From: a candidate division WOR-3 bacterium
GTDB lineage: Bacteria > Hydrothermota > Hydrothermia > LBFQ01 > DSFT01
Length of the DNA stretch: 64,000 nt
Direction of reading: 5' to 3'
Assembly: GCA_039802865.1 (NCBI GenBank)
Contig: JBDRXL010000004.1
Coordinates: 3,768 to 67,767, forward strand
The notes beneath the pieces are model-generated. The model made no database searches, had not been told where the DNA came from, and was given only the letters and a program-made list of their open reading frames with translations. The position numbers were made by a program, and so were the translations under genes. Shown here piece after piece: positions 28,819-58,515 of the stretch (position 1 is the stretch's first letter; each line of letters opens with the position of its first letter).

Positions 28819-28843
28819 AAAATTTTAAAGCCTTAAAATTTCA
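28819..28843. promoter_or_regulatory. Double palindrome AAAATTTTAAAGCCTTAAAATTTCA between the tRNA-Glu 5' end and the divergent TTG-initiated M1 peptidase gene
   Basis: On the minus strand it reads GGCTTTAAAATTTTCAAACTT, ending 8 nt before the mature tRNA 5' G. On the plus strand CCTTAAAATTTCAAA ends directly before the TTG. Confidence 0.55.
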
Positions 28844-32809: not shown

Positions 32810-34627
32810 ATGATAACTTTAATTATAAGCTTTGAAAGTTTAAAAATATGTGTGTTTGATAAAAAAACAAATGAACCGCTTGAAGCGGTGCAGATTTATA
32901 CATCTTTAACCTTTACATTTACTGACCATAATGGTTGTGCTAATGTAAAAATGAAAGATAATGATAGCTTAATAGTTTATAGGATTGGATATAAAACTTT
33001 AACACTTAAAAGAGAAGAAATTTCAGATAAAATTTATCTTGAAAGTTCTGGAATTACATTAAAAACTGTAAATGTGATATCAAAAGCAATTAAAGTAAAA
33101 GAAATAAAAAATATCAAAGAAGAAGTTGAAAATATAAATTTTGGAAATGTTATAAATAAGCCTATTATTTCTGGATTTAATAGAGATAAATATAATATTA
33201 TTGTTGATGGTGCATTTTTAAATGACCAAAGCGATTATTTAGACCATCCTATTGTAATTGATCCTGATTTAGTAAATAATATCTTTATTGGAAATTCCCA
33301 AAATAATGCTTTATTTGGTTTAAATTCAATAGCAGGTGGAATTGATTTAAAATTATTTGATATTGAAGAGAAAAATAAATTTTCTTTGTTTAGTGAATAT
33401 TTATCACAAAATAATAGAATATCTGCCGGAATAAAAAATAATAGAAATTTTGGAGATTTTTCATATAAATTTGGTATAAAGGGTTCAATTAGTCAAAATT
33501 TTGTAAATCCAGAAATAGAAAATACTTCTGATAGCTCATTTTATTCTATTTTATCAATCAAATATAAAGAATTTCAAATAGGTAATTACTTTAGCTTTAT
33601 AAATTATGGTGTTATTAATTCTGATGGAGGGGCAAGAAATTTATTTCTAAATCCAAGATTAAGTTATAAGAGCTTTATATTTGACTTTCAATACTCAGAT
33701 CAAATGGAATTGGGACATATTCATGGATTGTCCATAAAACATAGTAATGAGGGAACAAGGCTAAAATTATATACTGCACAAGGTATATACAACTCAGATA
33801 AATTCTATATTAATTTAATGTTAAATCGCTTTGAGGGAAGTGGGGAAGAAACTTCAAATTACAATAGATTTTTATTTACAATGTTATATTCAAACAAACT
33901 TAAAGACATTTTAAACTACTCTTTCTCTATAATTCCTAACTATTCAGATTTTGATAATAAATTAAAAGTTGGCTTTTCATTTTTAATTAATAAACCTATA
34001 AAAGATTTTAGTTTTACACTTTCACAATCAATTCAATATCCCTCACTTCAACAACTCTCATTTACAGGTATTCATGAAACTGCCAATAGATATGAAATTG
34101 CTAATGAAAACCTAAAAGAAGAATATTCATTTAATTTTTCTATAGATTATAAGCATTCTTTAAACTTCATATCTCTTTCAATCTCACCTTCAATAAACTA
34201 TATCAAAAACTTCATCCTTCTAACCCCATTAGATACTATCATACAAGGTTATAAAGCTTATACTTTTGAAAACAGAGATGTTTATATTCTAAATCTCAAT
34301 TCAGATATCTTTCTTATCTTTAAGAAAAACTTATTTATCAATTTAAATATCCTATATTCACAACCATCCATAAACATCCCCTTCTATTCAAAACCCCAAA
34401 TAAAAACAAAACTAACTTATAAGTTTTTAGAGTTATACCATAGGGTCATATTCGCAGATTCTATATATTCAATTTTCTCAACAGGTTTAAATTACTCTAT
34501 AAAGTTTATTAAGTCCAATCTCTTAATAGATAACATATTTAATGAGTATTACATTGAACCGACTAATCCCTTTGGAACACCAAATCCTTATAGAAATATA
34601 TCATTGAAGTTAAATTTTGATTTTTAA
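32810..34627 (+). CDS. TonB-dependent receptor-like outer-membrane protein (carboxypeptidase-regulatory-like N-domain plus plug plus barrel)
   Basis: N-terminal CarbopepD_reg-like strand pattern, plug-like GGIDLKLFD, and C-terminus ending ...LKLNFDF. Classical SD AAGGAGGT 7 nt upstream of the ATG. Confidence 0.45.
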   Translation: MITLIISFESLKICVFDKKTNEPLEAVQIYTSLTFTFTDHNGCANVKMKDNDSLIVYRIGYKTLTLKREEISDKIYLESSGITLKTVNVISKAIKVKEIKNIKEEVENINFGNVINKPIISGFNRDKYNIIVDGAFLNDQSDYLDHPIVIDPDLVNNIFIGNSQNNALFGLNSIAGGIDLKLFDIEEKNKFSLFSEYLSQNNRISAGIKNNRNFGDFSYKFGIKGSISQNFVNPEIENTSDSSFYSILSIKYKEFQIGNYFSFINYGVINSDGGARNLFLNPRLSYKSFIFDFQYSDQMELGHIHGLSIKHSNEGTRLKLYTAQGIYNSDKFYINLMLNRFEGSGEETSNYNRFLFTMLYSNKLKDILNYSFSIIPNYSDFDNKLKVGFSFLINKPIKDFSFTLSQSIQYPSLQQLSFTGIHETANRYEIANENLKEEYSFNFSIDYKHSLNFISLSISPSINYIKNFILLTPLDTIIQGYKAYTFENRDVYILNLNSDIFLIFKKNLFINLNILYSQPSINIPFYSKPQIKTKLTYKFLELYHRVIFADSIYSIFSTGLNYSIKFIKSNLLIDNIFNEYYIEPTNPFGTPNPYRNISLKLNFDF

Positions 34628-35154
34628 AACCTATTTAAGTCATTTGCTATTTCTTTTGGTTTTAAACCTAATGGGAAGTATCCTATAATTTTGTTATCTT
34701 TTATAAAAATTATAAATGAACTGTGAGATATATAGCCATTTTCATTAAATTGATAAGCTATTGAGAAAAATTTTGTAATTTTATAGAGTTCGTTTTCATC
34801 CTTTGGAACAAGTCCGATAAAATGTTTATTAAAATTTTTTAGATATTGTTTTAAAATCTCGGGTTTATCCCTATGAATATCAACACTTATAAACAATACT
34901 TTAACATCTTTTTTTATATATTTTAAGGCTTCTGATATATCTTTTAGTGCACTATAGCAAACATCGGGACATAAAGTATATCCAAAATAAATAAGGTTGT
35001 ATTTTTCCAATAAACTTTTAAACTCAACTAGATTTCCATTATGATCAATAAGTATAAAGTCTTGGTTAATTTCAATAGGTTTTTCTAACAACATACCATT
35101 ATATTTATATGAGCAGGACCCCGAAAGGAGCCCAAAAATAAAAAATAATCTCAT
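34624..35154 (-). CDS. SCO1/SenC family copper chaperone (thioredoxin fold), lipoprotein
   Basis: CPDVC motif ([12 protein letters not shown]) and lipoprotein signal [14 protein letters not shown]. Confidence 0.75.
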
Positions 35155-35586
35155 TCTATTACCGAGAATGTTCCAGGAAGATGAATATTTTTAGGATGTA
35201 AATTGCACCAGATAGTATATGAGCCAACTTTATTAGCAATAAATGAAAATGATTTTGTTTCCTTAGATTTTAGTGTCCAATTTACTTCTTCATAACCATC
35301 AATAGAGAAGTTTTCGCTTATAGGAGATTCATTTATAATATTTATATTAACCTTTGTTCCCTTTCTTACAATAAGATTAGAAGGCTCATTTATCACATTA
35401 AACTGCCTTACATTCTTTATTTGAACTCCTTCAATAGTAGCCTCAGGGATAGTAATATCATATGCTCTTATGTGTATAGTGAAATTTGCTTCCTTAGCTT
35501 TGTTAGTCAAACCTGTAATGGCAACATAGCCCAAACTTATCACTATCGCTCCAATGATGATTGTTAGGTTTAGCTTTTTCATCATC
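35151..35586 (-). CDS. Cupredoxin-like (putative copper-binding) membrane-anchored protein
   Basis: C-terminal [15 protein letters not shown] (Cys-x2-His type-1-copper-like ligands) and beta-sandwich pattern. Start reassigned to ATGATG at 35586 preceded by the strong SD CAGAAGGAGGTAAG. Confidence 0.45.
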
Positions 35587-35616
35587 TTACCTCCTTCTGT
35601 TAGCATAGCTAACTTG

Positions 35617-38149: not shown

Positions 38150-38166
38150 AGGGGCAAATAGCCCCT
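38150..38166 (-). terminator. Hairpin AGGGGCAAATAGCCCCT overlapping the stop codon of the S8 peptidase gene, 9 nt upstream of the cysS ATG
   Basis: 6-bp GC-rich stem with a 5-nt loop. Weak U-tract on the minus strand. Confidence 0.35.
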
Positions 38167-40784
38167 CAGTTATTTATAAGTTTATAAACTTTATCATTAA
38201 CTTTTAAGATATATATACCCTTTGACTTTACAGGTACTTTATAAATGCCATATTTTGCATCTTTAATAGTTGTTTGGTGTATCTTAGAACCATCTATGGA
38301 ATAAACACTGATACTTATATTTTGAGCATCTTTTAGATGATATTTTATTATAATTTTTGAATTTTTTAAGTTTGGATATATTCCAAATGGAATTATACCA
38401 ATTTCATCCGCAGAAACATTCACAAAGCAATTTAAAATAGCAGACATTAGCTCTTCTCTTTTATTCCATCCTGATTGAGTATTACTAATTGCTTCAAAAG
38501 GACCAGCCAAAAACACAGTCTTACACATTCCATTTTCTATTCTATATACCATTGCTCCTCCATAATCTCCACTTCCTAAAACATTAGTCCATTTAAATGC
38601 TCTTCTTGCTCCTGCTTGTGGAGATATATTATCATTAGAATTAGCATTTTGAGCTCCATCAGGATTAAACAATCTAAACTTTAAATTATTTCCAAGAGGG
38701 TCATTTGTTTCTGCTACCATCGTTTTATAAGAAATGCCTGTTTGAACAACACTTGCTCCAAGATAATTTGTAATAAATTGACTTCCATTTTGATCTTCTG
38801 CCAAATACTGACTTGATATAAATAATTTTTTACCACTATTTAACCAATTTATGAGAGTATCTCTTTCTTCATTTGTCAAAACATTACTACTTCTATTTCC
38901 TGTATGCCATATTATAATACTTCTTGCACTTGAATAAAAAGCATCTTTATCACTAAACTTTACTATATCATAAACTTTTCCTAAGCTATCAAGAGCTTGC
39001 ATATAATAATTTTCAAAACTTGTTAATGTATCAGCATCTACTAAAAGAATTTCAGGAAAACCTATGGTAAGTCTTAAATTTAATATAGTATCAGCATTTT
39101 GTGGGGATGAAATAACTTTTACTTTAAAATTCCAAAATCTTGGTTGATTCCCACTTATACTAACTTCAAAAAAGTCCGCAGGTTCAATAACTTGCCCCAT
39201 CGTTATATTCCCAGCATTAATATTGCCATCTATAACAGTTATATTAGGGTCATCATTTATAAGTTGAAGTTGAACATTATTAGCATTTCTATAACATCTT
39301 GGATTAGTTAAAGTTAGATAAAGTTTTACTTGTTCTCCAACTTCTGCTCTTTTATTATTATTGTAATTTGAATCATCTACTCTAATTTTTAAAACATTTA
39401 CACCTGCAAACTTTGCCATTCTCACTGCTTTATAAGCATTTACCCTACCAGAGCCAATTAAACCAGCATAATTTGGATTCAAAGCATCTATATTATCAGC
39501 AGAACATAATAAAACTGTATCTACTTCATCAACACTTAAATTAGGATTAGCTGCTTTTATAAGAGCAGCAACACCAGCAGCGGAAGGACTTGACATTGAA
39601 GTTCCAGAGTAAGCAGCATAAGTATAAGAATTATTAGAAGAATTCCAGGCAGTTGAAAGGACATTAACACCAGGTGCTGATACATCTACCCATGTTCCAT
39701 AATTTGAAAAATTTGCTTTAATATCATTTTGATCCGTTGCAGCCACACATACTACTACATCATTATAGCCACACGGATATCTAATAGCATTTGCTCCATC
39801 ATTTCCTGCACTTGCATAATTATTAGCTCCCAAAGACCTAGCATAAGATAATGCATTATACTGAGAACTATTAAAACTTGAACCTCCATAGGAATGATTT
39901 ATGATTTTAGCTCCGTTATTAGCAGCATAATATGTCCCGTTGATAGAATAGTATATATATCCACAATTTCCGGTTCTTATAGCCATTGCTTTTGCACCCC
40001 AAGCCTCACCTGCTACTCCAACATTATTATTTGTCCAGGCAGCCATTATTCCCGTTGTATGCGTTCCATGGTCATCAAAATTAGGATCACAAGGCTCGGG
40101 TCTTGGATTGTTATCATTACTATAAAAATCCCAACCTATTAAATCATCTTTAAAGCCATTTCCATCATTATCAACATTATCTAAATCTCCTGGATCAAAC
40201 TGCCAAGTAGAACCATTAAAAAATATAGTATAACCATTTCCATTTGCATCTTCCCCAAGATTATTCCAAATAATTCCTCCCAAATCTGGATGGTCCCAAA
40301 CAACCGCATTATCAACAGCGGCAACAACAATACCATTAGCATTAGTAATATCCCAGGCATTAAAAGCTTGTATCTTTGGAAGATGCCATTGATTTGGAAC
40401 TAAGGGGTCATTTGGTGTTAAATCAACTTTATATATATACCATGGCTCTACATATTCAAACATTCCAGTAGATTGTAAATTTCTAATAACTCTTTCAACA
40501 TCTATCTCGTTATTAAAGTAAATTACAATAATCCTATGAAGGCCTAATTCCATAGCTTCCGGTGTAATTTTACCAAGTATAAGACCCTCAACAGATCTTA
40601 TATTTAAATTTTGAAGTATAGAATTTATACTATGAGGAAGTCTATAAAATCTTGTAAAAGCCCCATTTACATAATCTACGCTCTTTATTTCAAAGAGTGG
40701 AAAATACTCAGCTCTTACCTTTGCTATAACTCTATCTTTTAAGTAAAGTGCTTGTTCATTTAAACTAAAAACAAAGAAAAGCAT
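38166..40784 (-). CDS. S8-family subtilisin-like serine peptidase with T9SS C-terminal sorting domain
   Basis: Catalytic triad contexts AAVDNAV (Asp), DDHGTHTTGIMAA (His) and GTSMSSPSAAGVAAL (Ser). C-terminus ...KGIYILKVNDKVYKLINN. Promoter element AAGCTTTAAAATTTCATT-ATG upstream. Confidence 0.85.
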   Translation of the reverse strand: MLFFVFSLNEQALYLKDRVIAKVRAEYFPLFEIKSVDYVNGAFTRFYRLPHSINSILQNLNIRSVEGLILGKITPEAMELGLHRIIVIYFNNEIDVERVIRNLQSTGMFEYVEPWYIYKVDLTPNDPLVPNQWHLPKIQAFNAWDITNANGIVVAAVDNAVVWDHPDLGGIIWNNLGEDANGNGYTIFFNGSTWQFDPGDLDNVDNDGNGFKDDLIGWDFYSNDNNPRPEPCDPNFDDHGTHTTGIMAAWTNNNVGVAGEAWGAKAMAIRTGNCGYIYYSINGTYYAANNGAKIINHSYGGSSFNSSQYNALSYARSLGANNYASAGNDGANAIRYPCGYNDVVVCVAATDQNDIKANFSNYGTWVDVSAPGVNVLSTAWNSSNNSYTYAAYSGTSMSSPSAAGVAALIKAANPNLSVDEVDTVLLCSADNIDALNPNYAGLIGSGRVNAYKAVRMAKFAGVNVLKIRVDDSNYNNNKRAEVGEQVKLYLTLTNPRCYRNANNVQLQLINDDPNITVIDGNINAGNITMGQVIEPADFFEVSISGNQPRFWNFKVKVISSPQNADTILNLRLTIGFPEILLVDADTLTSFENYYMQALDSLGKVYDIVKFSDKDAFYSSARSIIIWHTGNRSSNVLTNEERDTLINWLNSGKKLFISSQYLAEDQNGSQFITNYLGASVVQTGISYKTMVAETNDPLGNNLKFRLFNPDGAQNANSNDNISPQAGARRAFKWTNVLGSGDYGGAMVYRIENGMCKTVFLAGPFEAISNTQSGWNKREELMSAILNCFVNVSADEIGIIPFGIYPNLKNSKIIIKYHLKDAQNISISVYSIDGSKIHQTTIKDAKYGIYKVPVKSKGIYILKVNDKVYKLINN

Positions 40785-40806
40785 AATGAAATTTTAAAGC
40801 TTATTA

Positions 40807-41904
40807 CTAAACTCTAAATCTTAAAATTGCTCCAATCTCATTTGATATTAATTCATTAAGTTTTAAAGTATGAGCTATTTCAACATTTCCACCATTCTCA
40901 ATTACAAAATCTATTAAATAATCTGTAATATCTTTTAAAACTTCAATATCTTCACAGGGAAAATCAAACTCCTTATGATAAAATAATCCATTCGAATGGC
41001 ATACATAACCATTATGATGAAAATTCAAATTTACAATCAAAGTTCTTATATTATACATTAAAGCATGTTTTACAACATTTTCAATACCAATAGTAGCTAA
41101 ACCATTTCCAAGTTTCTCTCTAAATTCTTCAAATAATTTTTCTTCTTCCTTAATATCAATTTCTTCAAGCTTTTCAATAAGCTTTCTAAAAATTTGTTCC
41201 TTATTATTATGCTCTGTCCTTAAAAAACCAAAAAACATTCTTTCAATATATTTTGGAAAATAACTTAAAACCAAATTTCCTGATTTTTCATCAGGAGTAG
41301 AAATAAAAATTCTATCAATTTTAAATCTATTAACTATTTCCTCAATCCTTTGCAAAATATACTTTGAAATTTTTCTTTCATATTCACTTATAACATTTTC
41401 TATATTCTGTCCTCCAATCGTTCTTACAACAGGCTTAGAAGAAGACTTTAAAGTTGTTTTATATACTCCACTTTCAATATAAGGTAAAGTAAAACTTAAA
41501 TCTTCCTCAATAGTATGAATACCCTTACTATCTACAATGAAAATTTTTAAATTTTTATGGCTATAATTTACAATTAAATTTCTACCAAACTCACTTTCAA
41601 GATAATTTATAAAATTTATATAAGGTTTTCGAGATATTATTATTTTGTTTGGTAACTTAAAAGGAAGTTTTCTTATTTCCAAATTTTTTGTTTTTATATC
41701 CAAAAATAAAGCAATAGAATATACAGGAAGACCCCCTTCATTTTCAAGAAAATAAGGATTTAAAATTAAATTTTCAATCTCTTCAAGCTCGTTTTCATAC
41801 TCTTTAATTTCTTTTTTTAGATTTTTAAAGTTTAATATATATCTTGGTGGTCTATCCGCCCTATCTTCCGGTGTTGTTGAAAGATAAATATTAATGTATC
41901 TCAT
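40807..41904 (-). CDS. Bacterial eRF1/Pelota-like (baeRF-type) protein with GGQ motif
   Basis: Central VVRTIGGQNIENVISEYERK (GGQ). The C-terminal GLATIGIENVVKHALMYNIRTLIVNLNF resembles eRF1 domain-3 ([28 protein letters not shown]). Terminal ...ISNEIGAILRFRV matches the G(I/V)(G/A)AILR(Y/F) signature of eRF1/Pelota. Last gene of a 4-gene operon. Confidence 0.55.
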   Translation of the reverse strand: MRYINIYLSTTPEDRADRPPRYILNFKNLKKEIKEYENELEEIENLILNPYFLENEGGLPVYSIALFLDIKTKNLEIRKLPFKLPNKIIISRKPYINFINYLESEFGRNLIVNYSHKNLKIFIVDSKGIHTIEEDLSFTLPYIESGVYKTTLKSSSKPVVRTIGGQNIENVISEYERKISKYILQRIEEIVNRFKIDRIFISTPDEKSGNLVLSYFPKYIERMFFGFLRTEHNNKEQIFRKLIEKLEEIDIKEEEKLFEEFREKLGNGLATIGIENVVKHALMYNIRTLIVNLNFHHNGYVCHSNGLFYHKEFDFPCEDIEVLKDITDYLIDFVIENGGNVEIAHTLKLNELISNEIGAILRFRV

Positions 41905-42505
41905 ATATTCCCTCCTTTATTTGTCGTGATAAAGGCTCCTCATCTCTATATCCACAATTTAAAACAAAGGCTATTTGCCACTTATTATAATCCATCCTCA
42001 GAAAGTAATTAACAAACTCCTCTTCTACTGTTTTAGCAGAAAAACCAACAGGTCCCGTATCAAGACCTTCTGCTCTTGCTTGAACCATCATAGCTTGGGC
42101 TATCATCCAACTAACAGAAAAATGATAATTTCTATTATAAGTTAAATCTGTAAGTCCAACAAACATAATAGGGGCTCCACCAAGTGTTTTTATAAATTCT
42201 TTCATATAATTTCTCCACCACTCTTTTAAATTATCTGGAACAATATTATATAAAATTGCTAAATCCCTTGTTATCGAATAAGTTTGATTTATAATATTTA
42301 CCGCTCTTTCCTTTGCCCAATATTGTAAAATAACTAAGGTAAAAGGTATTATAAAATCTTGTAATATAAAAGATGGAACTTCTGAAATTCTTCTAATAGC
42401 ATCCTCCGTTGGCATAACGGACTTATATTTCCTTATCGTTCTTCTACTTTCAATAGTCTTAAATACAACATTTGGGAGTTTATTAGTATATTTCATATAT
42501 TCCAC
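41891..42505 (-). CDS. Nitroreductase-family (FMN-dependent) protein, tandem paralog A
   Basis: ESRRTIRKYKS (RRSxRxF-like) N-motif, GGAPIMFVGL and AEGLDTG motifs. More than 80% nucleotide identity over long stretches with the upstream paralog. Confidence 0.7.
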   Translation of the reverse strand: MEYMKYTNKLPNVVFKTIESRRTIRKYKSVMPTEDAIRRISEVPSFILQDFIIPFTLVILQYWAKERAVNIINQTYSITRDLAILYNIVPDNLKEWWRNYMKEFIKTLGGAPIMFVGLTDLTYNRNYHFSVSWMIAQAMMVQARAEGLDTGPVGFSAKTVEEEFVNYFLRMDYNKWQIAFVLNCGYRDEEPLSRQIKEGIYEIH

Positions 42506-43082
42506 TCCTCAATTCTTTAACAATAGGCTCCTCATCTCTATATCCACAATTTAAAACAAATGCCACTTGCCATTTATTATAATCCATAGCTAAAAAATCT
42601 TCTATTAGTTCTTTTTCTACACTTTTACTTGTAAATGTAACACTTCCAGTATCAAGACCTTCTGCTCTCGCTTGAATCATTATAGCTTGTGCTATTATCC
42701 AACTAACAGAAAAATGATAATTTTTATTATTTTTTAAATCCGTAAGTCCAATGAACATAATAGGAGCTCCACCAAGTGTTTTTATAAATTCCTTTATAAA
42801 TTCTTTATACCAATCCTTTAAATTATCTGGAACAATATTATATAAAACCGCCAAATCCCTTGCTACTGAATAAGTTTCATTTATGATATTTACTGCCCTT
42901 TCCCTTGCCCAATATTGTAAAATTATTAACTTAAATGGAATTGGAAAATCTTGTAATATAAAAAATGGAACTTCTGAAATTCTTCTAATAGCATCTTCTG
43001 TTGGCATAATAGATTTATATTTCCTTATCGTTCTTCTACTTTCAATAGTCTTAAATACAACATTTGGAAGTCTTGTAATCAT
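42483..43082 (-). CDS. Nitroreductase-family (FMN-dependent) protein, tandem paralog B
   Basis: Same motifs as 41891..42505. 23-nt overlap with paralog A. Confidence 0.7.
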   Translation of the reverse strand: MITRLPNVVFKTIESRRTIRKYKSIMPTEDAIRRISEVPFFILQDFPIPFKLIILQYWARERAVNIINETYSVARDLAVLYNIVPDNLKDWYKEFIKEFIKTLGGAPIMFIGLTDLKNNKNYHFSVSWIIAQAIMIQARAEGLDTGSVTFTSKSVEKELIEDFLAMDYNKWQVAFVLNCGYRDEEPIVKELRSGIYEIY

Positions 43083-43588
43083 TCAATCCTCCATATTATA
43101 GCTTCTCTATTTGGTAATTTTGGTTCTATCTTAATCGCTGGATAGCCAAGCAGCAAAATAGCAAAAAACTCATATTCCTGAGGATTTATATTAAATTCAT
43201 TATATATATAATCCTTAAAATTCTCATTCAACTGAAATATCACCTCAGAAACAATACCATAACTTATTGCTTGAATTCTCATATTATATATAGCAGCAGA
43301 AGTGGAACCATATTGAGTTAATTGATTATATTCTTCTTTAACTTTTGCACAAAAGCATAAAATTATAGTATTAGCTTTTTTGTCTAATTTTTTTGATATG
43401 CTTAAAGCTTTATCTCCTGTAATTGCTATGAATTTCCAAGGTTGTGGGGGATTTAAACCATAAGGTGCATATGTTCCAGCTTTTAATATATTTTCTATAA
43501 TATCCTTAGGAATGGGCTTTAAAGCAAACTTATCAGTATTCTTCAATAGTCTGTTTAGCTCATATAAAATTTTACCTTCCATAGGCAT
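43079..43588 (-). CDS. Divergent nitroreductase-fold protein (third member of the operon)
   Basis: GLNPPQPWKFIAI and TIILCF segments are typical of the nitroreductase superfamily. Promoter element GCTTTAAAATTTTAATGCCT-ATG upstream. ATGA overlap with the next gene. Confidence 0.55.
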   Translation of the reverse strand: MPMEGKILYELNRLLKNTDKFALKPIPKDIIENILKAGTYAPYGLNPPQPWKFIAITGDKALSISKKLDKKANTIILCFCAKVKEEYNQLTQYGSTSAAIYNMRIQAISYGIVSEVIFQLNENFKDYIYNEFNINPQEYEFFAILLLGYPAIKIEPKLPNREAIIWRIE

Positions 43589-43608
43589 TAAAATTTTAAA
43601 GCTATCAT

Positions 43609-44238
43609 ATGTATAAATTTAAAAATTTTGTTCATCCTTTATTTGCCTCAAACACATATGTAATTTATAAGGAAAATAGTAATGAATGCATTATTATTGA
43701 CCCAACAGATATTGCTTTTAGAGATTTAGCAAAGTTTTTAGAAAATAATAATTTAAAGCCAATAAGTATCATAAACACCCATGGGCATTATGACCATATT
43801 AGTGGAATTGATTTAGTAAGAGAAACTTATAAAATTCCACTTTATATACATAAAAATGAAGAAGAATTTTTAAGAAATCCCGAACTAAATTTATCTATTT
43901 ATCTTGGAAAGAATTTAATTATAAAGCCTGCTGAATACTATGTTAATGATAATGATGAAATTATGGGCTTTAAAATTATACATACCCCAGGACATACCCC
44001 TGGGAGTATATGCTTGAAAGTAGAAAATATTTTAATAGTTGGCGATTTGATATTTTTAAATTCCATAGGAAGGGTGGATTTACCGCTTTCAAGCGAAGAA
44101 GATATGAGAAATTCACTAATTAAAATTTTAAATTACATAGATGAAGATACGACAATTTTGCCAGGTCATGGAAGAAGTTTTAAATTAGAAGATTTAAAAA
44201 GAGAAAATGAAATACTATGGAGCTTTATAAATTTTTAG
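43609..44238 (+). CDS. MBL-fold metallo-hydrolase (glyoxalase II-like)
   Basis: HGHYDHISG (HxHxDH) and downstream His/Asp ligands. Confidence 0.8.
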   Translation: MYKFKNFVHPLFASNTYVIYKENSNECIIIDPTDIAFRDLAKFLENNNLKPISIINTHGHYDHISGIDLVRETYKIPLYIHKNEEEFLRNPELNLSIYLGKNLIIKPAEYYVNDNDEIMGFKIIHTPGHTPGSICLKVENILIVGDLIFLNSIGRVDLPLSSEEDMRNSLIKILNYIDEDTTILPGHGRSFKLEDLKRENEILWSFINF

Positions 44239-45107
44239 ATGAATTTATTGATTATTTAATGTCGGAAAGGGGTTATAGTTATCATACCTTAGATGGTTAT
44301 AAAAGGGATGTTAATAAATTTATTATGTTCATTGAAATGAATAATTATGATATTGAGAATTTAGATGTTAATGAGCTTCAAAAATTTGTGAATTATTTAT
44401 CTAATCTTGGTTTTTCAGCATCATCTATTGAAAGATGTATAGCAGCGGTAAGAAGCTTTTTGAAATTTTTATATATCTATCATAATATAAATACATCTAT
44501 TTCAGAGCTTATAGAACTCCCAAGGAAAAAGCAATTTATGCCCGATGTTATGACAGTAGAAGAAATAGAATTATTACTTAATCAACCAGATATAACAACA
44601 GAAAAGGGTTTAAGAGATAGAGCTATTATGGAGCTATTATACGCAACAGGAATGAGGGTTAGTGAGGCATTATCACTTAAAGTATATGATGTAAACTTAG
44701 ATGATAGAATTGTTAGAATTAGTGGAAAGGGTAATAAAGAGCGCATTGTTCCATTTCACGAAACTGCAAGGGAATTTTTATATAAATACTTAACAAATGC
44801 AAGAAGTAAATTTATTAAAAATAGAGATAATGGTTATTTATTCCTTAATTCAAAGGGAAATAGACTTTCAAGAATAGGATTTTGGAAAATTTTAAAAGAA
44901 TATGCAATAACAATTGGTCTTGAAAACAAAGTTCATCCTCATGTTTTTAGACACTCATTTGCTACTCATATGCTTATGAATGGTTGTGATTTAAGAATCT
45001 TACAAGAGATTCTAGGACATTCCTCTATCTCTACTACTCAAAGATATACTTATATTTCGATTGCTCATTTAAAGGAAATTCATAAAAAATATCATCCAAG
45101 AGCATGA
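44217..45107 (+). CDS. xerD: Tyrosine recombinase XerD/XerC
   Basis: C-terminal RHSFATHMLMNGCDLRILQEILGHSSISTTQRYTYIS carries the R-H-R-Y catalytic residues. Phage-integrase N-terminal SAM-like domain. Confidence 0.8.
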   Translation: MELYKFLDEFIDYLMSERGYSYHTLDGYKRDVNKFIMFIEMNNYDIENLDVNELQKFVNYLSNLGFSASSIERCIAAVRSFLKFLYIYHNINTSISELIELPRKKQFMPDVMTVEEIELLLNQPDITTEKGLRDRAIMELLYATGMRVSEALSLKVYDVNLDDRIVRISGKGNKERIVPFHETAREFLYKYLTNARSKFIKNRDNGYLFLNSKGNRLSRIGFWKILKEYAITIGLENKVHPHVFRHSFATHMLMNGCDLRILQEILGHSSISTTQRYTYISIAHLKEIHKKYHPRA

Positions 45108-45703
45108 TAAGAGTTCTTGGAATTAATGGCTCACCAAGAGGTGAAAAATCAAGAGCATTCTTTCTACTAGAAAAATCCTTAGAAGTTTGTAGGAATTTAG
45201 GTGCAGAAATAGATATTATTCATCTTTCAAAGGTTTATATTGAGCATTGTTCTGGTAATTATAGTGAAAATAGAGAGCTTTGCAATGTTGAAAATTGTAT
45301 AAAAACAAAGGATAGTTTTAAGTATGTTTTAAATAAAATGTTATTAGCAGATGGAATCATATTTTCAACCTCTGTTCAATGGTTTGGAGTTTCATCCTTA
45401 ATGAAAACTTTAATTGATAGATTAACAAGTGCAGAAAATAAAGAGAAGTTATTTGATGGAAAAGTTGCTGGATTTATAGCAGTTGCAGAAGAAGATGGAG
45501 CTATGAATGCTATTTTACAAATGGTTTCCGCATTTAATTTTATGGGCTTTTTAATTCCACCATATGCGTTCGTTTATAGCACTGGATTTTATGATGATAT
45601 TAGTAAAGATATTGAAGCTATTGAAGATGCTAAAAGGCTTGGAAGAAATATTATTTTAGCAATAAAGGCTATACAAAATATCCAAAATTGGTGGGAAATT
45701 TAA
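45104..45703 (+). CDS. NADPH-dependent FMN reductase / iron-sulfur-flavoprotein-like
   Basis: Flavodoxin-like MIRVLGINGSPRGEKS. Cys cluster HCSGNYSENRELCNVENC is reminiscent of Isf proteins. Confidence 0.65.
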   Translation: MIRVLGINGSPRGEKSRAFFLLEKSLEVCRNLGAEIDIIHLSKVYIEHCSGNYSENRELCNVENCIKTKDSFKYVLNKMLLADGIIFSTSVQWFGVSSLMKTLIDRLTSAENKEKLFDGKVAGFIAVAEEDGAMNAILQMVSAFNFMGFLIPPYAFVYSTGFYDDISKDIEAIEDAKRLGRNIILAIKAIQNIQNWWEI

Positions 45704-52005: not shown

Positions 52006-53804
52006 GCACTATTTTAAATTTTTTAATTTCTTATAGTTGTGAATTGGTAATGGTTCCAATGAGGGATAGTGTTAAGTTAGCTACTGAAATTTGTAAGCCT
52101 TGGCCCTTTTTCCCACCATACTTAGTTATTCTTGTAAGAACACCATATGATAGAAATGGTGTTGGATTAAATTACTTTAAACCATTTATAACAGATTATA
52201 AAAGATATGTTTTAGTAATTCAAAGTTTAAGAGGATTCCAAGGAAGTGAAGGTAATCCTTCTGTATTTGCTACTGATGGTTGGGGTCAGCTTCAAGATGG
52301 CTATGATGCTATAAATTGGATAATAAGTCAAAGTTGGGCAAGAGATAGTGTTTGCGGTTCTTGGTTTTCCGCAATGGGTATAACTCAATACTTACTTTCT
52401 GGAACAGGACATCCTAATTATATATGTGCAGTTCCTTTTGTAGGTGCTCATAGTTTATATCATTATGCAGCATTTCAGGGAGGAGAATTTCGCAAACAAC
52501 TTGTTGAAAATTGGCTAAATGGCTTGAATGTTGGATATTTAATTGATTCTGTTGCTTCACATCCTTCCTATGATACATTTTGGAAATTTTTAAATCTTGA
52601 AGAAAGATTAAATTATGTAAAAATTCCTATGCTTCACTTTGGAGGATGGTTTGATATATTTATTGAAAGTCAAGTAGATATATTCAATAAATTGCATTTT
52701 TCTGGTATGCCAGGAGCAAAAAATAAACAAAAACTCATAATTGGTCCTTGGACTCATTTAGGGTTTGGACAAGCAAATCAAGGGGACCTAGTATTTCCAA
52801 ATGCAATTATAGATTTTCTAGACTTTGATAATGATTTTTATATGGCAATAGGGAGTTGGTATGATTGTCATTTAGCTGGAAAACAAAGTGCTTGTGATTA
52901 TATAAATAGTTTTCCACCTGTTAAATTTTATATTATTGGATTAAATGAATGGGCTTATTCTGACACATTTCCACCAAGAGGAATTTATTATAGGAATTTT
53001 TATTTAAGAAATGATGGTTCAATTTCACAAAACTATCCAACTGAAAATACAGGTTATTCACAATATATATATAATCCTTACGACCCAACACCAACCATTG
53101 GAGGAAATGAGTTATTAGACCCAACTCAAGCAGGTCCAAAAGATCAAAGTCCTTTAATAAATAGAAGCGATGTGATAGTATTTCAAACTCCACTCTTAAC
53201 TGATACATTATTAGTAATAGGGACAATTTATGCAAAACTATATATTTCATCTGATAGACTTGATACAGATTTTTCGGTTAGACTTGTAGATGTATTCCCA
53301 GATGGTAGGAAAATTTTAGTTACTGATGGTATAATAAAGGCAAGATATAGATATGGATTTGAGCAAGAAGTTTTATTAACACCTAATCAAATTGACTCAG
53401 TAATTGTAAGAGTTGGAACAACCGCCTGGGCATTCTTACCAGGACATAGACTTATGGTAATTATTTCATCTGCAAATTATCCAAGATTTGAGGCAAATCC
53501 AAATAATGGAGGACCATTTAAAAGGGATGATCCTAATAAACTTATAGCAACAAATAGAATTTATCATAATAGCCACTATCCTTCATATATAAGCCTTCCC
53601 ATATATCAAACTACTGATATTAAGGAAGCAAAGGAAGAAAAAATTTATTATATAAAAGGCAATAGGTTGTGCACTAAAAAAATGGCAAATTTATATTCTG
53701 CAAATGGACGCTTTTTGAAGAAAATAAATGGATGTGAAAAGTTAAATAAGGGGGTATATATTTTGAAAGTTAAAAACAAAACATATAAAGTAATAATGCT
53801 TTAA
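52002..53804 (+). CDS. CocE/NonD-family (S15, X-Pro dipeptidyl-peptidase-like) hydrolase with T9SS C-terminal sorting domain
   Basis: Alpha/beta-hydrolase core with the nucleophile elbow GSWFSAMG. The C-terminal beta-sandwich PDGRKILVTDGIIKARYRYG is typical of CocE/NonD. Tail ...KGVYILKVKNKTYKVIML. ATGA overlap with the previous cargo gene. Confidence 0.65.
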   Translation: MSTILNFLISYSCELVMVPMRDSVKLATEICKPWPFFPPYLVILVRTPYDRNGVGLNYFKPFITDYKRYVLVIQSLRGFQGSEGNPSVFATDGWGQLQDGYDAINWIISQSWARDSVCGSWFSAMGITQYLLSGTGHPNYICAVPFVGAHSLYHYAAFQGGEFRKQLVENWLNGLNVGYLIDSVASHPSYDTFWKFLNLEERLNYVKIPMLHFGGWFDIFIESQVDIFNKLHFSGMPGAKNKQKLIIGPWTHLGFGQANQGDLVFPNAIIDFLDFDNDFYMAIGSWYDCHLAGKQSACDYINSFPPVKFYIIGLNEWAYSDTFPPRGIYYRNFYLRNDGSISQNYPTENTGYSQYIYNPYDPTPTIGGNELLDPTQAGPKDQSPLINRSDVIVFQTPLLTDTLLVIGTIYAKLYISSDRLDTDFSVRLVDVFPDGRKILVTDGIIKARYRYGFEQEVLLTPNQIDSVIVRVGTTAWAFLPGHRLMVIISSANYPRFEANPNNGGPFKRDDPNKLIATNRIYHNSHYPSYISLPIYQTTDIKEAKEEKIYYIKGNRLCTKKMANLYSANGRFLKKINGCEKLNKGVYILKVKNKTYKVIML

Positions 53805-53814
53805 AATTTCAATT

Positions 53815-58490: not shown

Positions 58491-58515
58491 TAAATTTTAA
58501 AGCTTTAAAATTTTA
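58491..58515. promoter_or_regulatory. Overlapping double palindrome TAAATTTTAAAGCTTTAAAATTTTA filling the 32-bp divergent intergenic region
   Basis: Minus reading is GCTTTAAAATTTACAAT-ATG (56504..58486). Plus reading is GCTTTAAAATTTTAACT-ATG (58519). Confidence 0.55.

Follow-up and report, generated by a model that had tools for sequence, protein, structure and literature searches.

A GGQ-bearing, nitroreductase-linked relative of Balon-type hibernation factors in WOR-3 bacteria

A 64,000-nucleotide (nt) stretch of DNA from a candidate division WOR-3 bacterium (the window) carries a minus-strand unit of four overlapping genes, three of which encode nitroreductase-fold proteins (NTR-A, NTR-B1 and NTR-B2) and the last a 365-amino-acid (365-aa) protein with a central GGQ motif. 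Within the aeRF1/Pelota superfamily the 365-aa protein belongs, as a remote member, to the bacterial aeRF1-like (baeRF-1) clade, and with its orthologs it makes up a GGQ-bearing, nitroreductase-linked sub-family of the Balon superfamily that is confined to an uncultured, thermophile-associated phylum. Conserved in this sub-family are not three nitroreductase partners but two distinct ones, and a single one in a sister sub-clade. The features of the locus are:

43591..43602, minus strand: start-proximal, promoter-like motif GCTTTAAAATTT, 2 nt 5' of the NTR-A ATG
43079..43588, minus strand: NTR-A, 169 aa, nitroreductase fold, Pfam PF00881
42483..43082, minus strand: NTR-B1, 199 aa, nitroreductase fold, Pfam PF00881
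41891..42505, minus strand: NTR-B2, 204 aa, tandem duplicate of NTR-B1
40807..41904, minus strand: baeRF-1/Balon-like protein, 365 aa, three domains
40789..40800, minus strand: second copy of GCTTTAAAATTT, 4 nt 5' of the ATG (40784) of an S8 peptidase gene

Organization of the four-gene unit

An earlier note on this DNA had described four minus-strand open reading frames (ORFs) overlapping by 4-23 nt, and these are present as given, with successive overlaps of 4, 23 and 14 nt. The GTG at 42505 annotated as the NTR-B2 start is probably wrong, and the ATG at 42496 is favored because a GAGGA Shine-Dalgarno (SD) sequence lies upstream of it; given this start, the NTR-B1/NTR-B2 overlap is 14 nt and not 23. 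NTR-A and NTR-B1 meet in a 4-nt ATGA overlap. The internal genes all have strong SD sequences (GGAGG, GAGGA and AGGAG), each lying inside the 3' end of the gene before, with that of NTR-B1 (GGAGG) at 43088-43092 and that of the 365-aa gene (AGGAG) at 41912-41916; NTR-A has none.

The GCTTTAAAATTT motif is a 12-mer containing a -10-like TAAAAT. Allowing up to one mismatch, 37 copies occur in the window compared to 6.4 ± 2.4 in shuffled sequence, and 24 of these 37 lie 2-12 nt 5' of a start codon (ORFs of at least 60 aa), a placement found for 6.8% of random positions. One copy precedes tRNA-Glu by 7 nt, and for this reason the motif is read as a transcriptional element; it looks like a -10-type promoter giving leaderless or very short-leader mRNAs. 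The copy at 43591-43602 is the probable start of the four-gene transcription unit, with no leader or a very short one, and the copy at 40789-40800 is the probable start of the next unit, which would therefore place the 3' boundary of the four-gene unit there. No further same-strand copy lies between the two, and variants of the motif are found 5' of the first module gene in every orthologous locus, GC-rich WOR-3 relatives included; we therefore take the four genes to form one unit. The single promoter element proposed in the earlier note holds in this form, with GCTTTAAAATTT standing before NTR-A and not recurring until the S8 peptidase gene. A generic sigma-70/terminator scan was uninformative, returning 62 promoter-like sites where 53 ± 7.5 were expected, a number not above chance. 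The gene 3' of the module varies, being an S8 peptidase in the window and BioY, a short-chain dehydrogenase/reductase (SDR) or a 488-aa protein in orthologous loci, and the S8 peptidase thus falls outside the conserved module. Elsewhere in the window, copies of the motif are found at 28830-28841 (+), 53798-53809 (+) and 58492-58513 (both strands). Most copies precede genes without an SD sequence; operon-first genes carry the motif and internal genes use an SD sequence.

The 365-aa protein and its GGQ loop

The baeRF-1 clade was described by Burroughs & Aravind (PMC6514570), and work published in 2024 established members of it as ribosome hibernation factors (PMC10901736). The factors in question, Balon (P. 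urativorans AOC03_06830) and the mycobacterial MSMEG_1130 and Rv2629, have no GGQ and possess a lasso loop and a bL27 trap (PMC10901736). The identity of the 365-aa protein rests on NCBIfam, a family profile and a fold search, and not on Pfam or single-sequence searches of the PDB. Of the Pfam families that the earlier note had named for checking (eRF1, baeRF and Host_attach), only eRF1_3 gave a match, which was sub-threshold (20.9 bits against a cutoff of 25.8; E=5.4e-4); the eRF1_1 and eRF1_2 domains were not matched, baeRF_family10 (PF18854) and Host_attach (PF10116) were not matched even at E<=1, and the best the PDB search returned was a non-significant hit to aRF1 at E~0.8. Among NCBIfam models, the "AOC03_06830 family ribosome hibernation factor" (Balon) model was matched over residues 72-362 at E=2.6e-10, with weaker matches to those of MSMEG_1130 and Rv2629. 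None of the scores (40.3, 18.5 and 17.7 bits for NF052287/8/9) comes near its equivalog cutoff (330, 480 and 320 bits), which makes the protein a remote relative of the hibernation factors and not an equivalog. Its predicted fold is a three-domain aeRF1-like one with Balon homologs as the closest structures. The assignment to the eRF1/Pelota family made there thus stands at the level of the aeRF1/Pelota superfamily and for the conserved GGQ, and gives way in that the closest relatives are Balon-type hibernation factors, not eRF1 or Pelota. The combination that marks Pelota/Dom34 (no catalytic glutamine, an N-domain loop A and Pelota as the best structural match) is not what the 365-aa protein displays. 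An identical sequence is on record as a hypothetical protein of a candidate division WOR-3 metagenome-assembled genome.

The N domain contains the highly conserved loop PEDRADRPPRY (41839-41871), which in the form TTPEDRxDKPPRY is the best-conserved N-domain loop of the clade. Balon contacts the decoding centre through an HP motif in its N domain; column statistics found no His-Pro at the conserved Pro column in the GGQ clade or in most of its relatives. The decoding motifs NIKS and YxCxxxF do not occur in the 365-aa sequence. In the middle domain, a long loop carrying RTIGGQNIE (41398-41424) is followed by a long helix, with the GGQ itself at residues 164-166 (nt 41407-41415). The Pelota/eRF1_3-like C domain has a two-strand insert, placed at residues 299-302 and 307-309 in an AlphaFold2 (AF2) model, and ends in GAILRFRV (40810-40833). 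The central GGQ, the domain-3-like block and this terminus had all been picked out in the earlier note and are present; the match of the block to domain 3 of human eRF1 was reproduced by hhalign. One relative, P0028, has a CxxC...CxxC pattern in the C-domain insert segment of the alignment, consistent with the degenerate zinc ribbon reported in baeRF-1 proteins (PMC6514570). In Balon, the C domain has a beta-hairpin inserted where the zinc ribbon would be, which serves in contact with EF-Tu.

A profile search of 1.84 billion representatives recovered 649 relatives at E<1e-3, with GGQ in only two 50%-identity clusters. In 185,579 species-representative genomes, the GGQ clade occurs at four loci, all from WOR-3 (the phylum Caldifarciminota in NCBI taxonomy) or "Ca. 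Hydrothermia". In a neighbor-joining tree (200 bootstraps), sub-clade I, which is AT-rich and holds the window, groups with the GC-rich sub-clade II at 64% bootstrap, with the GGQ-less P0016 as sister to both (97%) and P0017 next outward (100%). The tree suggests as the simplest history that GGQ arose or was retained once, in the ancestor of sub-clades I and II, with loss in P0016 as the alternative, and by the tree the module looks vertically inherited within WOR-3. At the P0016 locus (L007:7131-10562), a reverse gyrase gene lies 3' of the P0016 gene with a 4-nt overlap, which indicates a (hyper)thermophilic host, and a Usp-domain gene lies a few genes upstream.

The motif RT[IV]GGQ[NK][IL][ED] is invariant in 12 of 12 full-length homologs with identity down to 37%, and GGQ is also present in every further GGQ-clade locus with a complete gene, across a genomic GC range of 26-54%. 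When 11-mers are ranked by conservation between sub-clades I and II, the RTxGGQNxE segment comes third (0.69, with a protein-wide mean of 0.35). In the AF2 model the motif lies in the loop directly before the long middle-domain helix, as in aeRF1. The length of this loop is almost constant within the clade, a property reported by Burroughs & Aravind for Q-bearing, putatively active families (PMC6514570). Farther out, the family divides into proteins with "G-x-x-E" and a large set with "GGW[SA]Q", the Q of which falls within one residue of the WOR-3 Q column; a GGWSQ representative is a Pfam baeRF_family10 protein, and this family has been singled out for a conserved, possibly catalytic glutamine (Burroughs & Aravind, PMC6514570). 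Three shortened homologs (P0013-P0015; 233/213 aa, on contigs of up to 23 kb) carry several internal deletions, one of which takes out the first G of GGQ; these may be gene-calling artefacts or decayed copies.

Nitroreductase partners and their linkage

Linkage was scored on all fetched loci with our own ORF caller and hidden Markov models, counting distinct contigs and leaving out two GGQ-clade contigs, one cut by a contig end and the other a chimera. At least one nitroreductase gene is adjacent in 22 of 22 evaluable GGQ-clade contigs, which settles in the affirmative a question posed in the earlier note, whether the association recurs. None of six GGQ-less relatives (P0016, P0017, P0019, P0022, P0034 and L037) has a nitroreductase neighbor. 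In sub-clade I the order is NTR-A (~165 aa), NTR-B (~198 aa) and the eRF1-like gene, with overlapping frames, and NTR-A orthologs are present in all 16 contigs that reach far enough upstream. In sub-clade II the eRF1-like gene comes before a single canonical nitroreductase gene, each with its own promoter-like motif, and the pair lies between gyrB or carbamate kinase and recG. The flanks of the sub-clade I module vary both upstream (a trio of metallo-beta-lactamase (MBL)-fold, XerD and FMN_red genes, an RluD-type pseudouridine synthase, or an S8 peptidase) and downstream (BioY, the 488-aa gene, SDR or S8 peptidase). In the reverse direction, two look-ups found NTR-B genes on five further contigs, all within the same triad. 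The adjacency has thus outlived shifts in base composition and flanking genes as well as in the order of the genes and the type of partner. Apart from nitroreductases, no neighbor of the GGQ-clade genes is conserved in the loci examined; no HPF/RaiA, Hsp20, RtcB or OsmC-type stress genes were found in the window neighborhood or orthologous loci, and no pairing of Balon or baeRF with nitroreductases was found in the literature searched. A 177-aa gene upstream of the GGQ-less P0017 was considered as a cryptic nitroreductase and rejected, as it gave no Pfam match and no alignment.

The earlier note had spoken of three nitroreductase paralogs. All three pass the Pfam Nitroreductase model (PF00881, cutoff 23.5 bits; NTR-A 36.3, NTR-B1 26.1 and the third partner 29.4), and the term holds at the superfamily level only, because NTR-A and NTR-B show no significant similarity even in a profile-to-profile comparison (E=0.1). 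The further claim that two of them are a recent tandem duplicate is borne out. NTR-B1 and NTR-B2 are 78% identical, the other sub-clade I contigs examined carry one NTR-B gene each, and outside the window B2-like proteins are limited to its closest relatives (P0164, P0165); the duplication is therefore recent and lineage-specific, limited to the window and those relatives. NTR-B homologs fall in 57 clusters, nearly all with at least 57% identity, and NTR-B is apparently a tight subfamily restricted to WOR-3. A PDB sequence search with NTR-B gave no match; its AF2 model has a predicted local distance difference test (pLDDT) score of 78, and every Foldseek match to it belongs to the nitroreductase superfamily (nitroreductase, iodotyrosine deiodinase (IYD), BluB and FbiB-C). 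NTR-A is matched in the PDB by small NAD(P)H nitroreductases and IYD.

The contacts of NfsB with flavin mononucleotide (FMN) include Arg10, Ser12, Lys14 and Ser39 (PMC10805014), and FMN motifs were compared using an alignment made against E. coli NfsB. NTR-A has lost the N-terminal FMN-phosphate motif, reading LLKNTDKF where RxSxK/RxF is expected (R10 replaced by L, S12 by N/S/I and K14 by D/R/S), and keeps AP-x3-N-x2-QPW (43436-43468). NTR-B has the reverse arrangement, with an invariant RRTIRKY (43017-43037 in NTR-B1, 42425-42445 in NTR-B2) and VPFFILQDFPIPF in place of the AP(S)SxNxQPW block. The sub-clade II partner, a canonical NAD(P)H-flavin oxidoreductase (E=8.5e-18 to 2fre), keeps both motifs in one chain. 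Because the retained motifs are complementary, an NTR-A:NTR-B heterodimer would have one complete FMN site if, as presumably in the crystal structures of NfsB, the two motifs at each site come from opposite subunits, and the ATGA overlap and strict co-occurrence are compatible with an obligate NTR-A:NTR-B heteromer.

Several features of the surrounding DNA were also recorded. A divergent plus-strand unit (43609-45703) starts only 20 nt from the NTR-A start. Its overlapping frames encode an MBL-fold hydrolase, a tyrosine recombinase of the XerC/D type and an NADPH-dependent FMN reductase. L001 and L002 have the trio in synteny, other loci lack it, and it may be a second flavin/redox unit with a common bidirectional promoter region. 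The S8 gene at 38166-40784 (minus strand) encodes a large secreted subtilase with a type IX secretion system (T9SS)-type Por_Secre_tail sorting domain. S8 peptidase genes adjoin the module also in L005, L006, L010 and L019-L023, on either side and in either orientation, with Por_Secre_tail present in the window and L019-L023, and with a cysteinyl-tRNA synthetase gene adjoining the S8 gene in the window, L005 and L006; this recurrence is probably residual synteny. In a "Ca. Hydrothermia" group (L006, L010 and L019-L029, e.g., L019:5675-6403), the last 4 nt of the eRF1-like gene also belong to a FabG-like short-chain dehydrogenase gene, which adds another NAD(P)H-dependent oxidoreductase to the operon. 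At L033:1235-3469 (JGI contig Ga0079995_1034942), a 744-aa ORF joins an archaeal-type Glu/Gln-tRNA synthetase in frame to the eRF1-like protein at residue ~70; both halves are truncated mid-domain, the synthetase in its anticodon-binding domain, and the upstream genes are archaeal-looking, and for these reasons we left it aside, a chimera of metagenome assembly being its likeliest origin. In the window at 34624-35606 (minus strand), adjacent SCO1/SenC and cupredoxin-like genes suggest that this WOR-3 genome provides for copper handling and possibly for an accessory function to an aerobic-type oxidase.

Interpretation and comparison with known systems

We read the locus, with a probability of roughly 40%, as a two-component module for translation stress that is specific to the WOR-3 (Caldifarciminota) lineage. 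As the first component, the divergent Balon/baeRF-1 factor would dock in the ribosomal A site, probably with EF-Tu and, since no NIKS or YxCxxxF motif is present, independently of the codon; by homology with Balon, such binding to the A site is probable. The middle-domain GGQ loop would hydrolyze peptidyl-tRNA, making the protein a stop-codon-independent release or rescue factor that clears nascent chains as ribosomes stall or shut down, beyond plugging alone; judging from the sequence, a catalytic GGQ loop is a possibility to be held at somewhat below even odds. The second component would be a nitroreductase-fold flavoprotein, in the window's sub-clade a translationally coupled NTR-A:NTR-B heterodimer in which complementary decay of the two FMN motifs leaves a single functional flavin site, and in sub-clade II an ordinary homodimeric enzyme. 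The retained motifs make the chances of a one-site heterodimer about even. This flavoprotein would provide a redox-linked function on which any use of the GGQ factor depends, either sensing or gating by NAD(P)H/flavin state or the elimination of a stressor that is redox-active or nitroaromatic; for direct functional coupling of the two beyond co-expression, the case is evenly balanced. The most far-reaching form of the proposal, in which a bacterial descendant of archaeal aRF1 kept or regained activity as a codon-independent GGQ hydrolase of the Balon family and became obligatorily tied to a dedicated flavoprotein, in most lineages an asymmetric one-FMN NTR-A:NTR-B heterodimer sensing redox state or passing it to the ribosome, is unlikely.

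A number of observations weigh against the two-component module. The broad family profile aligns the aRF1 GGQ three residues upstream of the WOR-3 GGQ, and the GGQ loop is left unaligned both by the narrow GGQ-clade profile against the PDB and by hhalign against human eRF1. The AF2 model has pLDDT values below 50 over residues 139-170, which contain the motif, and the helix after it, as read from the sequence, is less basic than that of eRF1. In the nearest relatives the GGQ columns read ATK (P0016) and GAK (P0017), making the loop evolutionarily labile. The type, number, position and transcription unit of the nitroreductase partner differ between sub-clades, as would be expected of a loose functional association more than of a fixed complex. 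The single origin implied by the tree makes the correlation of GGQ with nitroreductases one evolutionary event that was then maintained, and many of the sub-clade I contigs are near-identical populations. Finally, Balon, MSMEG_1130 and Rv2629, to which the protein is closest in structure, are non-catalytic and remain outside the peptidyl-transferase centre (PTC) (PMC10901736).

These points bear directly on a non-catalytic alternative, which is a serious contender, though we would put it short of an even chance. Under this explanation the 365-aa protein is an ordinary Balon-type hibernation factor that plugs the A site of idle ribosomes and belongs to a lineage-specific redox-stress operon; the GGQ would be a structural clade feature of a lasso-like loop, and the nitroreductases co-regulated NAD(P)H detoxification enzymes with no direct interplay. 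It is favored by closest structures that are all non-catalytic Balons, by closest relatives without GGQ, by the ambiguous register and poor modeling of the loop, and by the variation in nitroreductase type, position and transcription unit between sub-clades. Balon genes are also reported in stress-response operons of variable content (PMC10901736), and the divergent unit with an MBL-fold hydrolase and NADPH-dependent FMN reductase suggests a redox-stress neighborhood. However, it leaves unexplained the ranking of RTxGGQNxE among the top three conserved segments at 37% overall identity and the linkage of nitroreductases to 22/22 GGQ-clade contigs compared to 0/6 outside the clade, and it gives no account of why NTR-A and NTR-B are found only in the triad or why the adjacency persists through rearrangement of gene order and flanks.

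Chloramphenicol is reducible by some nitroreductases. The module could accordingly answer a nitroaromatic or redox-active translation inhibitor, with the nitroreductase inactivating or activating a chloramphenicol-type PTC drug and the GGQ factor rescuing the stalled ribosomes, an arrangement that would give a direct chemical reason for joining a nitroreductase to a PTC-directed factor. Balon genes are reported beside the drug-resistance genes Smr, MarC and EmrB (PMC10901736), and baeRF-1 rescue pathways have been proposed as an answer to ribosome-targeting effectors (Burroughs & Aravind, PMC6514570). This explanation is entirely inferential, however; genes for efflux, resistance or biosynthesis are absent from the module and its conserved flanks, NTR-A and NTR-B have diverged far from typical NfsA/NfsB-like drug reductases, and we consider it quite unlikely. 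The earlier note had also raised a defence module, and an anti-phage or inter-genomic conflict system shutting down translation on infection would suit both the conflict context in which baeRF-1 proteins have been discussed (PMC6514570) and the patchy, laterally spread occurrence of the family across bacteria. This reading was rejected as very improbable: no PADLOC model (PADLOC-DB) matches any of the four proteins (E<=0.01), the syntenic context is a housekeeping one (aminoacyl-tRNA synthetases, gyrB and recG) with host-like GC and no mobile-element hallmarks, and the inheritance pattern within WOR-3 looks vertical. The note's other suggestion, maturation of a ribosomally synthesized and post-translationally modified peptide or thiazole/oxazole-modified microcin (RiPP/TOMM) by SagB/McbC-like dehydrogenases that oxidize a ribosomal peptide while the eRF1-like protein plays an accessory part, draws on the common nitroreductase fold alone and was rejected as scarcely credible. 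No YcaO, cyclodehydratase or docking-protein gene and none of the precursor-like ORFs for which that note had recommended a search were found in the module or within ~10 kb, orthologous loci likewise have no YcaO or precursor gene, the conserved core elsewhere is the nitroreductase genes and the eRF1-like gene alone, and the fold matches of NTR-B are generic, its neighbors being nitroreductase, IYD, BluB and FbiB-C and not McbC or SagB.

Balon revealed the aeRF1 homologs of bacteria to be hibernation factors of wide occurrence, and their loss of GGQ is central to how these factors are thought to work. The clade described here combines Balon architecture with a constrained canonical GGQ and an invariable flavoenzyme linkage, and its closest GGQ-less relatives are without that linkage, which makes it a concrete and tractable test case for whether any bacterial aeRF1-like protein is catalytically active. 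If the reading as a GGQ hydrolase with redox input is true, it would give the Balon family its first catalytic member and bring flavin/redox state directly into ribosome rescue or hibernation for the first time, and a nitroreductase pair that forms a one-site heterodimer working with the factor would be an unusual case of sub-functionalized nitroreductase subunits. Should the GGQ have a structural role alone, what remains is a Balon-type stress operon particular to this lineage, and interest in it would be modest.

A comparison of the 365-aa protein with Balon shows an identity of only 12-13%, an NCBIfam score of 40 bits against a cutoff of 330, and a common lack of the NIKS motif. Balon is without GGQ, whereas the WOR-3 protein has an invariant GGQ preceded by a loop of ~28 residues, and the HPF/RaiA, Hsp20 and RtcB neighbors of Balon are replaced by nitroreductases as the fixed neighbors. 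The association of Balon with RtcB in the literature is echoed at the P0034 locus (L038), where a GGWSQ-type baeRF_family10 gene lies a few genes from the RNA repair genes Archease and RtcB. The nearest named sequence family is baeRF_family10 (PF18854), which is matched by P0018 (31 bits against a cutoff of 27.1), P0019, P0022 and P0034, with P0012 and P0016 sub-threshold at ~20 bits. Many of its members carry GGW[SA]Q, of the GxuQ type for which catalytic potential has been predicted, no more than one residue away from the column of the WOR-3 GGQ; they differ from the window protein in having GGWSQ rather than the canonical GGQ and in having no nitroreductase in the neighborhoods examined.

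The 365-aa protein resembles aRF1/eRF1 in a C domain of the eRF1_3 type with GAILRF at its end and in a GGQ tripeptide in the loop ahead of the long middle-domain helix, which the broad profile sets three residues apart from the aRF1 GGQ; unlike them it does not possess the NIKS and YxCxxxF decoding motifs. In function, the closest analogy to the proposed role would be ArfB (YaeJ), which carries out GGQ-dependent, codon-independent peptidyl-tRNA hydrolysis. ArfB has a bacterial RF-PH domain, a fold unrelated to that of the 365-aa protein, and no flavoprotein partner. The nitroreductase partners share PF00881 membership with FMN nitroreductases of the NfsB/YdjA type, which are homodimers with two sites; NTR-A and NTR-B differ from these in that each keeps one of two complementary FMN motifs and in that they are encoded as an always-overlapping gene pair.

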